A stretch of DNA of 64,000 bases from Pseudomonadota bacterium (GTDB taxonomy: Bacteria; Pseudomonadota; Alphaproteobacteria; Paracaedibacterales; CAIOTO01). Where the stretch lies: positions 11,933-75,932 of the forward strand of contig JAZKDQ010000007.1 of NCBI GenBank assembly GCA_040387495.1. The letters run 5' to 3'. A program made the position numbers. This document shows, piece by piece, positions 57,001 through 63,000 of this stretch. The first letter of the stretch is position 1. Each line of letters starts with the position of its first letter.

Positions 57001-60000
57001 TGGTCACTATCACTGCAGCGATGAGTATCATACTTATATTTCGAAAATAACGCATCGATGGCGACACTAAAGTTCTTTTTATTATTTTAGTCCTTCTTTT
57101 GTTATTCCCGCGCAAGCGGGAATCTAGGGCTGTCTTAGATATATAATTTAATCAAAGTCTTTAAACACTATTCTTCTGGATCCCCGCCTCCCGGCTACGC
57201 CTAAAGCTATGCCGTGGCGAGTCGTGAGGATGACGAGGAGCAAATGCATATTAGACAAGATTAAAACTCCTGCGTAACATTTTCCACATGATAGCACATA
57301 TCATAAATTATTTAATCATCAGATGCCATTAATATGATATTCTACGCGTGCCCATTATGCCCACACTCAAAAAAACAAACACGAGCGACACATGTCAAAA
57401 TCACCGCACCCCCTTGAAACCATTATTGACTATACGTTTGCAACGCCTGCTCTGCTTGAAAAAGCGCTCTCCCACCCCAGCGCAGCGCCGCGCAATAAAG
57501 ATTTCGAACGATTCGAATTTCTGGGAGATCGCGTACTTGGGCTTACCATGGCGGCTGTACTTCTTGAACTTTTCCCAACTGAACCTGAGGGACACCTAGC
57601 AAAGCGCCAAGCTGTTCTTGTGTCACGAGAATCGTGCCAAACAGTGGCAGGTCTCATTCAGCTGGAAAAGCACATCAAGGCGATTTGCGATTCTGGTGTA
57701 CACGAATCGAATATGTTAGCGATTTTAGCGGATGCTGTGGAGGCATTGTTAGGTGCAATGTATCTAGACGGTGGAATCGCACCGTGTCACACATTCGTGC
57801 GCCATTTTTGGGCAGATTTATTTCATGATTCGAAAGAACCGCCTAAGGATGCAAAGTCAGCTCTACAGGAATGGCTGCAAAAGCGCGGCAAACCAACGCC
57901 GGTTTACGCACCAACAGATGTTACTGGGCCTGCGCATAACCCAACATTTGTATGTGAAGTTCAACTGGATGGATTGCCATTATTTAAAGGTACGGGGCGT
58001 AATCGCCGCATGGCGGAACAAGATGCCGCAAAAGCTGCGATGATGTGGATTCAATCGACAAGTAAATGCAATAATTAGCTTCTCAACACTCTTACCAATT
58101 TTCCCAAACATCTCTCATTTCCTTTTTATTGTCATCCTCGGACTCCCGGCGACGCCGTTGCGCATGGCACGAGGATCTTAGCTGTTATTACTCACATCTT
58201 TTTATCATTCCAGGACAAATGGAAATTGATAACTATTTCATTACAACTCTCCATACAAAACAAAGATTTTGAACCTTATTTTTCTAAACACACCCCTTGT
58301 GTGTGAATGGCATAGAAAAGACAAGTATAACAATTTAAGAGTCAGATATTAAAAATTTTAAGATAATTTATGTCATAAGATATCCGTTAAAAATTCTTTG
58401 ATATTAACTAAAAATAGTTTTTCAAATTCAAATTAACATTAAAATTTCATTCAATTAACATTAAAATTTCATTCAATTAACCAAATATTAATTCTTCCAT
58501 GTCAAATTCTAGATAGATGGTGGAAGTTTGTTATTTAGATTTCCTCATTTTATAGAAAATTTTGGAGGTTTAAATGAAATTAAAATTAAAATTACTAGGC
58601 ACGTGTTTAGGTCTTGTTTTATCCTGCACAAATTCATATGCAGTAACTGGTGTAAGTGAATTATTAAATGGAGTGGGAGCTGGTGTAAGTGCTCTCGGTA
58701 CTAAAGTAATTTTACAAGCAAATGCAAGTGATATCGCTGCTTTGGACACAGTTGTTGTTGCTAACTTTACCACAGGGCAATTTGCAGGGTTATCTACAGT
58801 TCAAATTCCTGCATTAACAACAGCGCAACTTGCTGGCGTAACAACAGCGCAAATAGGTGCAATGACATCGGCGCAAGCTAAAGTTTTAACTTCAACACAA
58901 GTTGCGGCTCTTCCTTCCATTAGCAATATGGGGTCAGCTGTTATTACAGCTATAACCACAGCGGCACTTCCAAGTTTACCAACATCACTACTCACTACGT
59001 TAACAACAGCACAAATTGCTGCATTGACAGCAGCGCAAGTGGGTGTTTTATCAGCAGGACAAGCTTCTGCATTAACAACCACACAAATGCCTGCATTAGG
59101 AACAGCACAGCTTGCGGCCATGACTTCGGCACAATTTGCTGCTTTATCATCAACTCAAATTAATACATTGTCAAATTCAGGTGTTGCAAGCCTTGGATCA
59201 GCAAAAATAGCAGCCATGCCAACTTCAGTGATGAGTGGTCTATCAACAGCTTTAGTTCCTTATATAGTTGACACAGTGATACCATATATGACAACAGCTC
59301 AAATAGCTGCGATACAATCTGCCCAATTAGCCGTTTTAGACCTGACACAAGTCAACGCCCTTACATCGGCCCAATTAAGTGCTATAGGTAGTGCTGTATT
59401 TTCAGCATTGACTTCTCGTCAAATCCCTGCTTTGCATACAGCAGCACTTGCTGGCATACCTACTTCAGTGATGAGCGCTATAACCCTTGCACAAATTACA
59501 GCACTAAACACAGCTCAATTAAATGCTTTGTCATCAGCTCAAATAAACTCCATACCATCTGGAACCTTTTCCACATTAACAACAGCGTCAACGGGGCAAA
59601 TCCCCAGTTTACCGACATCGCTCATTGCAAATCTTCCAACCACCCTATTAACAGGTTTAGGAACAAGCTTAACTGCTTTAACATCAACTCAAGTAAATGC
59701 CTTGACATCTACACAGCTCAGCGCAATGACAACAAGTGTAACAAGTTTATCTTCATCCGGTATTCGAGGACTTAATTCTAACAATATTGCTGGCTTAACC
59801 ACAGCAGCATTAGCTGGGTTAACATCAGCAAAGATCCAGGCAATACCTACTGCTGCTATACCTGGTGTGGACTTTGGTGCAGCGATTGCAGCAAATATCA
59901 CAGCACTTTTAACAAATACTACTGGCTTCACCACTGCGCAACAACGTGCATTTACTACGAAACAATTTGGTGCTACAAACTTTGATACATCTGTGTTTGC

Positions 60001-63000
60001 TACTTGGTTAACACAACACTAATTAAAGTATTTAATTTAATATTGATTCACGAGATTTACAATTTACGGGGGTGCTGAACCCCCGTATTTTTTTATACAT
60101 AAAAAGTATGGAGGATTTCTATAAACTCTCCTTTTGTCTATAATCCCGGGCTCAATCCTCCGTGCTCTGTTGTACTTCACTGTTAAATCGACGTTCTTTT
60201 AAAAGTTTTTTACTCATTTTTATAAAAACAAGAAGTTTTTGCACACCACTTATCATTAAATTTTATCTAAAATTTTATATTGTAAATCCCCTCAAAATCT
60301 TCCATTCTTGTAGTATAGTTATTATTAGTTTTAGGAAAATTTTATGAAAAAGAAGTCGTTTATTCTTCCCTTACTTATGTCCACATCTCTTACGTGCGGG
60401 ACTGTGTTAGCAGCAACAGAAGATCAATCAGAAAATGTCCTGTCTGGAGAATTGCAATCAGTAGTTGTCGTAACAAAAGATCAGCCAGAAACTGTTTTGC
60501 ATGAAAAATCAAAATCAACACTAACAACAGAAGATCCTACAGGAAATATTTTATATGGGGGCCAACAAGCACATGAATTTTTTCAAAAGCAAGGCTTAAA
60601 TATAGCGTATTTTCTTGCATGTAAAATAGAGCAAAGATGTAGTTTTGACACGATTCATGAAGATGCAGCAAACCTTCGAAAGGATGTTGCTAAGAAAACA
60701 AATACACTAAATGCAGAAGATTTTGGCATTTCGCGCACCCCAGAAAGCGTGCCGTGGGCCGCTGGAGCGACCACACCTGTTTTGCAATACCCAGATATGA
60801 CAAAAACACTTATTTCACATTTATTGCACCTATCAGAAACAGAAGAATTTACCCCACTTAGTGATGAACTTGAATATCGCTATCGCACTCATACAGTTGC
60901 TGAATGGGTCGATCTTGCTGAAAGTGAACACACTGAAAACAATCAATTAAAGACATTTTTATACCGTGTTTTCACTGGACAACGGGATCCTCAAAATAAA
61001 GATGGTTGTATGTGGTTCTTTGATAAAGAAAAAGATTGGGTTGATATTAATGGTGCTAAGGCATTCCAACCGAATCCACTAACTATGCACCGATACAGTC
61101 GATGGCTTAAAGCTGCATATGAAATGAAACTAAATAAGGAAGATCCTTATGATCTATCTGGAAAAGTAGATATTACACTTTCTTACATTGAAGTACGATT
61201 TAAAGACACGGATGTGCACTCACGCGGCTTCATGTTTCCAAACGATAAAGATAGCACGGCCGAAGTTTCTGATCGCCCTTTTGCACTTTGTCATCCGCCA
61301 ACAAATAGTGTGGAATATCATTTAGGGAAATGTCGCTCTGCTTTTGAGGCAGCGCGCCGTTCCACAGGTGATAAGAAAACAAAAATTATGAAAATTCTTG
61401 ATTTTATGCACATATGGTCCATAACTATGCCCTATGCTAGAGGATCAGCGGCCGACAATGAATTTATTACTAATGCATTGTTTATTCATCACAATTTAGG
61501 TTTACCAAAACGGGATATTCTGAAAAAAGCAGATGAATATGCACAAGCATCTTTCACCTCTAAGCAATTTATAGACAAAATGCTTGAGTTGGGCATCGAA
61601 GAATTAGATCCATTCCCCTTTACAATGGAAGAATTCTTAAAGTCATTGCTTCCTGAAACGCTCACTGAACAAGCCGCCAAATTAAGAGAAATTGAAGAGA
61701 AACAAAAAGAAGCAGAATTAGCTAAAAGTAAGCTTGCCCAAAAAGAATATCCCGACTCAATTTTTGGCGTATCAGCAAAGCCTGGCATGTATGTATTGGA
61801 TACCTTAATTCATCATTTGGGAGCAAATGCGCCATACTTTGATCTTTTAAATTACATTAGTGGATACATCAAAGGTATTGTATCAAGAATACCAGGAATT
61901 GATGCAGATGCTTATCAAAGACTGCAAGCACCTCTCTCAAAATTGGCACCATGCGAAGAAGCATTCAATGCTGCACTTACGTATCAAAGTGATGACGCAA
62001 CGACATACAAAAACATCAAGAGCTACTATAACTTATACAATGAAACAAAGCCTTATGCTGAAGGAACAGAACTTGTAAATAATTTATTATTCCAAGCTTT
62101 ATGTTTACACCATAATATCGTCCCACAGTTAATGGATGGCAATTCATTAATCACTCCATTACAACCAGATGCTCCACTAGCATACCCACTATTTAAAGGT
62201 CGCCATGTGGTTGCTTCTACTCAAGAAACGGCTGACAGAATAAGTGGTTATTTAAATGAAACATTTGATCCAGAAGCACGCGAAACACCATTATGCAAAA
62301 TAATGAAGGACTGCAATTCTGATAAAAGTACCGTTCATAATTACACGAAAATGTATAATTTCTTGCTTCAAAATAAGCGTGACGCAGCAACAAACGTTTT
62401 TGAAATCGGAATTGGATCCACCGATCCTCAGTTTGCCTATACAATGGGGCCAAATGGTACTGCAGGCGCATCTTTACGTGGATGGCGCGAGTTTTTCCCG
62501 AATGCACACATTTACGGCGCAGACATTGATAAAGCTGCATTGTTTCAAGAAGACCGTATTAGCACCCATTTTGTAGATCAATTGAATACAGGGACGATCA
62601 AAGAAATGTTTGAACAAATCCCTGCAAAACTCTTTGACGTAATGGTTGATGATGGACTGCATTGTTTTGAGGCGAATGATATTTTCTTTAAAGCTGCACT
62701 TGATAAGTTAGCGCCTGGTGGCGTTTATATTATCGAAGACATTGCACCACGGGGAGTTCCTCTTGTTTTGAAATTACTTGAAGAAATTTCTGGCGAATAT
62801 GATGCAGCATTTATTCAATTGCCGACTGTGCCTGCACGATATGACAATAATATCTTTGTAGTATTTAAAAAAGCAATAGAGGCTTAAAGAATCTAATTTT
62901 ACCCCTTATTTTGGAAACAGAATGAGGGGATACTCATTGCTGCTTATTTCTCTTGCAATTAATTACTGGACCCACTTATACTAAGAGTGGTTTTTTAATA

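Follow-up and report, generated by a model that had tools for sequence, protein, structure and literature searches.

The window, a stretch of 64,000 nucleotides, comes from the genome of an uncultured, freshwater alphaproteobacterium of the obligate intracellular type, and two neighbouring genes on its forward strand are considered here. The downstream gene (60344..62887, stop codon included; G000:C7:72276-74819) carries an AGGA 8-11 nt 5' of its ATG and encodes a fusion protein of 847 amino acids (P0001), whose reading frame was recovered as given by an earlier survey of the genome. The span 58574..62887 that had been assigned to it does contain this reading frame, but its first position, 58574, marks where the neighbouring gene starts (58574..60022, forward strand). 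The latter encodes an ALTTAQ-repeat protein of 482 residues (PF20080, E 5.6e-49, nine stretches), which has a signal-like N-terminus, consists of about 48 units of an eight-residue repeat, has a Ser and Thr content of 27% and very few charged residues, and is the product of the sole ALTTAQ gene of the genome. A terminator-like GC-rich hairpin (60065..60087, forward strand; a stem of nine pairs, six of them G-C, then TTTTTTT) lies between the genes, which suggests that they are transcribed separately. Compared with L003, dN/dS is 0.15 for the whole fusion gene and 0.26 for the ALTTAQ gene. Judging from values of 0.11-0.14, all modules of the fusion protein are under purifying selection.

The protein is composed of five parts. 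It begins with a signal-like N-terminus, MKKKSFILPLLMSTSLTCGTVLAA (residues 1-24; 60344..60415, forward strand), judged by eye and with a crude hydropathy script, on which it scores 1.77, slightly below the script's own bar of 1.8. Its richness in K plus hydrophobic residues is preserved among homologues of 38-43% identity. The same script rates 19 of 34 family proteins as signal-like, while P0018 and P0019 are without a signal. G003 and G004 carry the gene as two separate halves, both with a signal-like N-terminus of their own, and the methyltransferase half also with its own ribosome-binding site.

Residues 60-440 (60521..61663, forward strand) are assigned by sequence profiles and predicted fold to an AvrB-type Fido domain. 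The Pfam match to AvrB_AvrC at residues 276-389 could be reproduced (E 5.6e-4, 19.7 bits, below the cut-off of 23.2 bits), and the NCBIfam XopAH/AvrB model gives E 3.2e-5 and 23.8 bits, below its cut-off of 220 bits. A profile of 29 Fido sequences matches AvrB with E 5.1e-8 and places MPyaRGSaa opposite MPDQRGSAA. The AvrB fold claimed for this domain from a model with pLDDT 72 is borne out by a new model of residues 60-440 from 29 sequences (pLDDT 89, pTM 0.89), for which AvrB entries occupy Foldseek ranks 1-5 and 7 (E 3.5e-4 to 2.7e-3); behind them in the structural ranking come AnkX and the Beps, Fic effectors that are translocated. In the 99.9%-complete genome PF05394 matches at two places, the fusion gene and a 429-aa ORF on contig C6 (g00687), the same two named before. 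The motif quoted as FIVMHTP for g00687, however, reads FIVMHTT in the sequence.

TMPYARGSAA was found again at residues 361-370, with Arg366. Its MPYARGSAA loop (residues 362-370; 61427..61453, forward strand) aligns with MPDQRGSAA of AvrB and pairs Arg366, Gly367 and Ala369/370 with Arg266, Gly267 and Ala269/270, a loop whose contacts are described in the available part of PMC10866546. Among 29 family sequences Arg366 is conserved in 26, Gly367 in 28 and Ser368 in 27. His317, situated in CHPP (61292..61294, forward strand) and a His in 28/29 sequences, is the counterpart of AvrB His217, as 'lchpg' falls on 'IDHTN' in the P0038-AvrB alignment; PMC1839166 is the source for the role of H217. These conserved residues match AvrB residues with demonstrated roles. 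Asp397 (61532..61534, forward strand; Asp in 28/29 sequences) is a candidate counterpart of AvrB Asp297, although the HMM alignments place it one residue off, opposite Ser296. The spacing of R112-F127-R131-T144-Y149 appears to be like that of R99-F113-R117-T125-Y131 in AvrB, the counterparts of AvrB Y65, R99, T125 and Y131 being assigned by spacing and not by residue-level structural alignment.

The following part (residues ~480-600) had been regarded as a plain helical region. It is instead a degenerate copy (residues 534-592; 61943..62119, forward strand) of the active-site segment of the Fido domain, residues 327-385. phmmer detects the relationship with 20.4 bits and a conditional E of 4.5e-7, and hhalign of the family blocks with a probability of 95% and E 3.8e-8 over 59 columns. 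The copy reads KPYAEGTE against MPYARGSA in the Fido domain, with Glu573 instead of Arg366. While the catalytic-type residues of the Fido domain are preserved across sequences that are 18-40% identical, the Arg position of the copy varies. The dN/dS of residues 480-609 is 0.14.

The C-terminal part (residues 610-847; 62171..62884, forward strand) is, by sequence and structure matches, a class I SAM- and metal-dependent O-methyltransferase of the MycE/SpnK type, in agreement with the survey's finding. It matches Methyltransf_31 with E 3.9e-6, and phmmer against PDB sequences returns MycE (3ssm, 4.2e-11) and 8ia9 (3e-9). The model of residues 441-847 reaches pLDDT 87; SpnK and MycE fill the top ten Foldseek matches of the methyltransferase (E 2.8e-10 to 1.5e-9), with a gap before the eleventh at 8e-7, and the structurally aligned core comprises residues 647-847. 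The SAM motif EIGIGS is encoded at 62402-62419 (forward strand). In DDGLH (residues 769-773; 62648..62662, forward strand) Asp770 corresponds to the Mg ligand Asp275 of MycE and His773 to His278, and Glu798-Asp799 (62735..62740, forward strand) corresponds to Glu303-Asp304, of which Asp304 is a Mg ligand (MycE residues according to PMC9275233; in the alignment to 3ssm_A the chain index is the native numbering + 20). The equivalents of Asp275, His278 and Asp304 are invariant, the DDGLH residues in family alignments A1 and A3. Tyr208 of MycE lies opposite Thr693, and an invariant Tyr699 stands within a family-specific insertion. This domain shows a dN/dS of 0.11.

Other family members combine these modules differently. 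The Fido domain is joined to MycE-like methyltransferases in P0022-25, to an FkbM methyltransferase in P0019 and to DUF3431 in P0013, P0029 and G005; the language-model clusters nearest to the DUF3431 region are RgpF/WsaF rhamnosyltransferase families at 0.91, which is a lead only. The same methyltransferase module is joined to HtrL_YibB, a family associated with LPS core clusters, in P0009 and P0010. These combinations lend indirect support to a putative two-step logic of glycosylation and methylation.

ALTTAQ orthologues adjoin the enzyme gene in relatives. An AvrB-like Fido gene was detected in 8 of 62 genomes of the same order, all eight of which also have an ALTTAQ gene, while none of the other 54 has a match at E <= 1e-5; the eight genomes are not independent, because they represent three genera of one order. 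The two genes are adjacent in 6/8 genomes, in two different genomic neighbourhoods; in G051 both reach contig ends, which precludes a judgement on their adjacency. The co-occurrence persists where another module stands in for the methyltransferase. ALTTAQ proteins are widespread in bacteria without this enzyme (a Caulobacter control has an ALTTAQ match and no PF05394 match), so the repeat does not need the enzyme. The ALTTAQ protein is proposed to be the acceptor or a partner of the enzyme.

The survey's finding had raised the concern that signal-bearing enzymes would be separated from cytoplasmic cofactors. Much of this concern is removed by the signal that each of the split halves carries, by the missing metK and by TLC translocases, nucleotide translocases with four matches in the genome versus 0/14 control genomes. 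metK was not found with two models, both of which are blind to archaeal-type SAM synthetases (four archaeal controls unmatched). RmlC was also not found in the genome, whose only SDR sugar enzymes are an ArnA-like and a generic one.

Among known systems, AvrB and AvrC of Pseudomonas syringae are Fido-fold protein O-rhamnosyltransferases (PF05394; PDB 1NH1, 2NUD/2NUN, 8TWS/8TWO/8TWJ/8TXF), as demonstrated in the available parts of PMC10866546 and bioRxiv 10.64898/2026.08.26.747443. The fusion protein shares with AvrB a two-lobed fold (aligned over AvrB 48-320), the MPxxRGSAA phosphate-binding loop with its catalytic Arg, the acceptor-Thr relay His and an Asp near D297. It differs in an export-signal-like N-terminus instead of a type III signal with myristoylation site, in a Fido domain about 100 residues longer whose Pfam and NCBIfam scores stay under the cut-offs, in its fusion to the degenerate copy and the methyltransferase, and in its origin from an intracellular freshwater bacterium and not a plant pathogen. 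MycE, TylE, SpnK and ThnM1 are metal-dependent O-methyltransferases for macrolide- or aglycone-bound 6-deoxyallose or rhamnose (PDB 3SSM/3SSN/3SSO, 8IA9/8IAA). As in MycE, DDGxH and ED motifs would supply Mg ligands and a His base, and the enzyme would act on an already attached sugar. However, the structural alignment covers the methyltransferase core only (MycE 156-376), the degenerate Fido module replaces the N-terminal part of MycE, and the signal-bearing protein belongs to no polyketide cluster. In contrast to the Fic/Doc enzymes (AnkX, Bep, FICD, VopS) it has no HPFx[D/E]GN[G/K]R motif and carries, like AvrB, an Arg at the Fic D/E position; the degenerate copy has a Glu there, but no His. 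Adhesins with the gene of a dedicated glycosyltransferase next to their own are known from HMW1C-HMW1, TibC-TibA and AAH-AIDA-I, likewise conserved pairs of a repeat-rich exported surface protein and a private glycosyltransferase; HMW1C, TibC and AAH, however, are cytoplasmic, have other folds and no signal peptides, and act on the adhesin before it is exported. The available part of PMC2943079 describes WsaE of Geobacillus stearothermophilus as a trifunctional enzyme with two rhamnosyltransferase domains and a rhamnose 2-O-methyltransferase, a single polypeptide that both transfers rhamnose and O-methylates it for an S-layer protein glycan. According to the same source WsaE is soluble, works on a lipid-linked glycan later passed on en bloc, has an N-terminal methyltransferase and uses bacterial dTDP-rhamnose.

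Tentatively, and with a chance that falls just short of even, we propose that the fusion protein is an exported glycosyltransferase and sugar methylase that decorates its ALTTAQ neighbour with the help of host-derived donors. The catalysis, sugar, acceptor and compartment that we infer are as follows. By analogy with AvrB and AvrC, the Fido domain would take a nucleotide-diphosphate sugar (a 6-deoxyhexose, for instance rhamnose, is the likeliest), hold its beta-phosphate with Arg366/Gly367 and move the sugar to a Thr/Ser hydroxyl placed by a relay of His317 and probably Thr144. The MycE/SpnK-type domain would then grip the cis-diol of the newly attached sugar via Mg2+ (Asp770, Asp799) and methylate one hydroxyl with SAM, His773 being the putative base. 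The degenerate copy, under purifying selection despite the lost catalytic Arg, probably keeps the substrate, or the residue that has been modified, in place for the methyltransferase. Glycosyl transfer and methylation may both occur beyond the bacterial cytoplasm, be it in the periplasm, at the cell surface or in the host cytosol. The donors would ultimately come from the host, since the bacterium lacks a SAM synthetase and a 6-deoxyhexose pathway. Among candidate acceptors the adjacent ALTTAQ protein is the most probable, and it would end up coated with an O-methylated sugar.

It is rather unlikely, though a serious competitor, that a secreted effector leaves the bacterium, rhamnosylates a host protein and methylates the attached sugar, while the ALTTAQ product is a surface protein unrelated to it or a helper secreted along with it. 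This would fit the obligate intracellular type of the bacterium, the terminator between the genes, the Fic effectors among the structural neighbours, and AvrB and AvrC, which act in the host, AvrC with broad specificity (available parts of PMC10866546 and bioRxiv 10.64898/2026.08.26.747443). The genome does encode a T6SS sheath protein, a single secretin and a single GspE-like ATPase, but VirB4 was not found in it, and a Sec-type signal is unusual for injected effectors. Furthermore, no host target can be named, and the joint gain, loss and movement of Fido and ALTTAQ genes are left unexplained. The earlier interpretation is supported in part: an AvrB-type Fido domain fused to a MycE/SpnK-type O-methyltransferase behind an export signal stands, with better support than before, the host target is putative, and the data offer the Thr/Ser-rich ALTTAQ protein as a more concrete acceptor than some host protein.

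We consider it improbable that the acceptor is a small molecule or a component of the envelope, be it a glycan or a lipid (LPS core, peptidoglycan or another glycolipid). The closest relatives of the methyltransferase do work on the sugars of natural products, macrolides among them, the HtrL_YibB fusions and Ara4N lipid A genes near the window point the same way, and a human FicD entry with bound farnesyl pyrophosphate among the structural matches (row 31) indicates that Fido pockets can hold prenyl diphosphates. However, the counterparts of the residues that position the acceptor Thr in AvrB (His317, probably Thr144) are among the best conserved, the gene does not lie in a natural-product or polysaccharide cluster, and the characterised Fido enzymes in the available parts of the cited literature all modify proteins. 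Just as improbable is a Fido domain that moves no sugar, performing nucleotidyl or phosphocholine transfer or merely bringing the methyltransferase to its substrate: the superfamily is chemically versatile in what is available of that literature, the AvrB-model scores are below threshold, the protein already holds one degenerate copy and the genome makes no 6-deoxyhexose, but the domain lacks the canonical Fic motif and the catalytic His that belongs to it, its loop agrees with that of AvrB at every residue of RGSAA, and its catalytic-type residues are conserved, unlike those of the copy.

The best explanation of the fusion protein is an exported bifunctional enzyme for the tailoring of protein glycans in an obligate intracellular alphaproteobacterium. 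It would join a rare sugar-attaching domain of plant pathogens to a sugar-methylating domain in an uncultured intracellular bacterium.

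The fusion protein P0001 (847 aa) is encoded on the plus strand at positions 60344-62887 of the window, which correspond to G000:C7:72276-74819. The survey's finding described the 847-aa ORF and its strand correctly; the start coordinate of its span, 58574, is that of the upstream gene. The Pfam match to AvrB_AvrC which it reported (E 5.6e-4, residues 276-389) was obtained again, with 19.7 bits under the cut-off of 23.2 bits. The NCBIfam model XopAH/AvrB (NF041403) also matches the protein (E 3.2e-5, 23.8 bits), far under its cut-off of 220 bits. The paralogue g00687, the second AvrB-like protein of this genome, exceeds the cut-off of PF05394 with 28.8 bits. 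Judged by its sequence, P0001 is of the AvrB kind, but stands outside the formal family by the curated thresholds.

A phmmer search with residues 60-440 against 1.84 billion cluster representatives revealed only 32 proteins at E <= 0.001. An alignment of 28 of these 32 proteins and g00687 (A2, 29 sequences) led to an AlphaFold model of residues 60-440 with a pLDDT of 89 and a pTM of 0.89. The model comprises the two-lobed AvrB fold, a Fido core with an inserted upper-lobe sheet, and AvrB entries are on top in Foldseek. The A2 profile matches AvrB from sequence alone (E 5.1e-8) and places MPyaRGSaa on MPDQRGSAA, so that Arg366 corresponds to AvrB Arg266. Among the PDB sequences AvrB was not matched by P0001 alone, by the full-length family profile A1 or by g00687 alone; it was reached by sequence only with the 29-sequence profile and with P0038, a family protein nearer to AvrB (E 5.7e-8).

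In AvrB, R266, G267, A269 and A270 are described to bind the UDP phosphates and D297 to bind rhamnose (PMC10866546), while T125 and H217 are described to connect, by a relay of hydrogen bonds, to Thr166 of RIN4, the acceptor residue (PMC1839166; PMC2686095). R366-G367-S368-A369-A370 of P0001 are the counterpart of the beta-phosphate loop R266-G267-S268-A269-A270 and are kept in 26-28 of the 29 sequences. The best-kept positions of A2 include Pro363 (29 of 29), His317, Gly367 and Asp397 (28 each), Ser368 (27) and Arg366 (26). His317 is assigned to AvrB His217 by the P0038-AvrB alignment, in which 'lchpg' is placed on 'IDHTN', and Asp397 is found opposite S296, one residue off D297. The spacing of R112-F127-R131-T144-Y149 is almost that of AvrB R99-F113-R117-T125-Y131. 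Going by this spacing and not by an alignment, Thr144 may be the counterpart of T125, and the conserved Y71-G72-G73, F80, R112 and Y149 are candidates for the contacts of AvrB Y65/R99 (N62, G46) and Y131. The motif HPFx[D/E]GN[G/K]R with the catalytic His, given for Fic AMP-transferases (PMC2686095), is absent from P0001, where the loop at that place reads TMPYARGSAADNE.

The C-terminal part of P0001 has a class I methyltransferase fold nearest to MycE and SpnK, with the SAM-binding glycine motif. A sequence search of the PDB yielded MycE (3ssm, E 4.2e-11) and 8ia9 (3e-9), which improve to 1.7e-18 and 1.7e-17 with the family profile, and a model of residues 441-847 (pLDDT 87) has nothing but SpnK and MycE among its ten best Foldseek hits. 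This structural alignment is confined to MycE 156-376; the preceding region of P0001 is homologous to its own Fido segment. MycE reportedly carries an N-terminal auxiliary domain. DDGLH and ED of P0001 align with MycE Asp275, His278 and Glu303-Asp304. Asp770, Asp799 and His773 correspond to the Mg ligands Asp275 and Asp304 and to His278, respectively, and are invariant in the alignments A1 (8 sequences) and A3 (14 sequences). MycE Tyr208 lies opposite Thr693 in the HMM alignment, and an invariant Tyr699 is found six residues on within an insertion. In sugar O-methyltransferases of the MycE type, rhamnose or 6-deoxyallose is described to be bound at its 2',3'-diol via Mg2+, with Asp275 and Asp304 as ligands and His278 conserved (PMC9275233).

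The middle module of P0001 is newly identified, on the strength of sequence comparison, as a degenerate copy of the Fido segment. Residues 534-592 match the protein's own residues 327-385 without gaps (20.4 bits, conditional E 4.5e-7), and this self-match recurs in the homologues P0002-P0007, weaker in P0004-P0006. When both blocks were cut from the family alignment, hhalign aligned them over 59 columns with 34% identity (probability 95%, E 3.8e-8). The middle copy reads KPYAEGTELVNNL where the active Fido domain reads MPYARGSAADNEF, and at the position of the Arg the homologues differ (E, H, A). With a dN/dS of 0.14 the module is under purifying selection, as is every module of P0001 (0.11-0.14). 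It would be catalytically dead and have a substrate-holding role.

Thirty other family representatives were scanned and compared. The Fido domain occurs by itself or in tandem (P0011), and also joined to the methyltransferase module known from P0001 (P0022-P0025), to an FkbM methyltransferase (P0019) or to DUF3431 (P0013, P0029). P0011 comprises two AvrB-like domains in 1167 aa, and P0019 (1327 aa), in which the AvrB-like domain is fused to the FkbM-family methyltransferase, is without a signal. The methyltransferase module of P0001 is also found behind an HtrL_YibB domain (P0009, P0010). The simplest common theme would be that a sugar-transferring and a sugar-tailoring module are joined. A precedent is WsaE, in which rhamnosyltransferase and rhamnose 2-O-methyltransferase are described as parts of one polypeptide (PMC2943079). 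A metagenome scan with the alignment A5 gave 149 pattern matches and no confirmed relative.

The gene upstream of P0001, at 58574-60022 on the plus strand, encodes an ALTTAQ repeat protein of 482 aa with a signal-like N-terminus (PF20080 repeats, E 5.6e-49), the only one in this genome. It has a period of 8 residues with about 48 units, 27% Ser+Thr and very few charged residues. Of 62 genomes searched within the order, eight contain a match to P0001's Fido part (G000, G002, G003, G004, G005, G007, G008 and G051), which are kin and belong to three genera. A genome-wide search at E <= 1e-5 found ALTTAQ in seven of these eight and in none of the 54 others; in G005, missed by that search, a direct scan revealed an ALTTAQ ORF (E 2.5e-19) adjoining the Fido gene. 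Six of the eight genomes have the two genes side by side. In G004 the pair is distributed over the ends of two contigs, in a gene order consistent with that of G003, and in G051 the genes run into contig ends. Five further loci proved by their coordinates to be the same contigs as those of G002, G003, G004, G007 and G008 and add no independent genomes. ALTTAQ proteins are also common in bacteria without this enzyme, and no paper on them was found in the literature search.

The pair occurs in two neighbourhoods, TamB/RNase III in genus g1 versus MipZ/MurD in g2. The paralogue g00687 (429 aa, L001:1306-2595, minus strand, G000:C6), with a signal-like start and the motif AMPYSRGSEA, is likewise situated directly beside murD. 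In the window, a 351-aa protein with a signal-like start and without Pfam or NCBIfam match is encoded at 52515-53570 (minus strand); an ORF equal in length and position lies beside TamB in the related locus L003 (742-1797, minus strand). In G005 a DUF3431-containing region takes the place of the methyltransferase and the pairing with ALTTAQ is kept. This AvrB-like-DUF3431 fusion of 1052 aa (L025:1-4349, G005:C19) is divergent to the ALTTAQ ORF, which is cut by the contig start. The nearest language-model clusters of its DUF3431 region are the RgpF/WsaF rhamnosyltransferase families (0.91); as a lead only, the region may be related to rhamnosyltransferases.

A single operon of the ALTTAQ gene and the P0001 gene was considered and dropped, as a strong terminator is present between them. 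Tandem repeats of an AT-rich unit, about 22 nt long, occupy 58420-58491 and close with the TTAA-N7-TTAA box TTAACCAAATATTAA (58477-58491), at a distance of 83 nt upstream from the start of the ALTTAQ gene. The window contains seven such boxes, not above the 5.8 expected by chance, and a private CtrA-type regulon was therefore rejected. The ALTTAQ protein was also considered as a lipoprotein and dismissed, since the Cys after LVLS in the window and in L003 is missing in the loci L006 and L007.

The genome of this bacterium comprises 1.66 Mb in 20 contigs with about 39% GC and is 99.9% complete. Its DNA was found in five sequencing runs of watershed/freshwater metagenomes, no RNA run among them. 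TLC nucleotide translocases yield four matches, compared to none in 14 control genomes: three full genes, two of them in tandem, and a 72-aa fragment (G000:C8:53033-56164 and C14:94182-99439). A SAM synthetase (metK) was not found with PF02773 or TIGR01034, each of which matches 10 of 10 bacterial controls. Both features are hallmarks of an obligate intracellular lifestyle, and we therefore read the bacterium as living on host nucleotides and host SAM. As metK is missing, all SAM must enter from outside and cross the envelope. Bacterial dTDP-rhamnose is excluded as the donor sugar, since the genome lacks RmlC and no 4,6-dehydratase scores above its cut-off. Only two SDR-type sugar enzymes are encoded: a decarboxylase that is ArnA-like, and a generic enzyme that scores below all cut-offs. 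Shortly before the window begins (L016:508-2487, G000:C7:9587-11566) there are genes for an ArnA-like UDP-glucuronate decarboxylase and an ArnD-like deformylase; their presence in this reduced genome points to lipid A modified with aminoarabinose.

The N-terminus of P0001, MKKKSFILPLLMSTSLTCGTVLAA, resembles a Sec signal, and a similar start is retained in homologues with 38-43% identity. A crude hydropathy script classified 19 of 34 family proteins as signal-like, with P0001 just under the bar. The strongest argument for the predicted export is a natural fission of the fusion gene in G003 (L004:7977-10487) and G004 (L024:3-2525), where one or two in-frame stop codons leave two products, a Fido protein of 432 aa and P0041, a protein of 393 aa with the middle module and the methyltransferase. 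P0041 comes with a separate ribosome-binding site (AAGGA) and a separate signal-like start, MKISPSKMKKMFVLATLLFMNNPQTSNA, which indicates that the SAM-dependent half has retained export, or gained it anew, on its own account; such separate export fits the missing metK.

For a route across the outer membrane the genome offers a single secretin, a single GspE-like ATPase, a gene for a T6SS sheath and one FHIPEP gene, which may be flagellar; a type IV route was dropped, as VirB4 is absent. The sole secretin gene (L017:1550-7741, G000:C1; 557 aa, Secretin and Secretin_N_2) overlaps an 891-aa ORF without Pfam match, and an ankyrin-repeat protein (459 aa) is encoded nearby. Recognition of AvrB-type Fido glycosyltransferases dates only from 2024 and was confined to type III effectors of plant pathogens (PMC10866546); neither a methyltransferase fusion nor an endosymbiont was found in titles and abstracts of the AvrB-family literature among the matches listed. 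AvrB and AvrC are delivered by type III secretion and have a host-acylated N-terminus, whereas P0001 begins with MKKK and a hydrophobic stretch. That P0001 is likewise an effector, acting on a host protein, appears rather unlikely. A non-protein acceptor, or a Fido activity that is not glycosyl transfer, is less probable still.

The architecture of P0001 is real and rare, and its ties to two characterised families of enzymes are good; catalysis, sugar, acceptor and compartment we infer. We give somewhat less than an even chance to the reading that an exported P0001 works in two steps, glycosylation and then methylation, and that its main acceptor is the ALTTAQ neighbour. More doubtful is the full form of this reading, in which the exported enzyme, working outside the bacterial cytoplasm, would draw nucleotide-sugar and SAM from the host and build an O-methylated sugar coat on the bacterium's own ALTTAQ beta-solenoid surface protein. 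A bacterium making neither SAM nor 6-deoxyhexoses would export a Fido-type glycosyltransferase/O-methyltransferase, and the reaction would take place at the cell surface or in a periplasm fed through porins. Proteins would be glycosylated outside the cytoplasm, independently of a lipid carrier and at the expense of host metabolites, and this might camouflage the bacterium within the host cell. In rickettsiae, lysine methylation of OmpB protects the bacterium from ubiquitylation by the host, and by analogy the role may be a surface disguise of the endosymbiont.

What is new is a rare sister family of the AvrB-type Fido glycosyltransferases, represented by 32 of 1.84 billion cluster representatives, most members of which look exported by prediction. 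Its Fido domain is modular and combines with sugar-tailoring domains, and the family is linked genetically with a single class of repeat proteins rich in Thr/Ser. Should the two-step reading hold, P0001 would be the first case of a coupling between a Fido enzyme and the methylation of sugars, and protein O-glycosylation would occur outside the bacterial cytoplasm without lipid-linked donors. P0001 and its ALTTAQ neighbour (PF20080) form a candidate enzyme-substrate pair for that repeat family, open to direct test.
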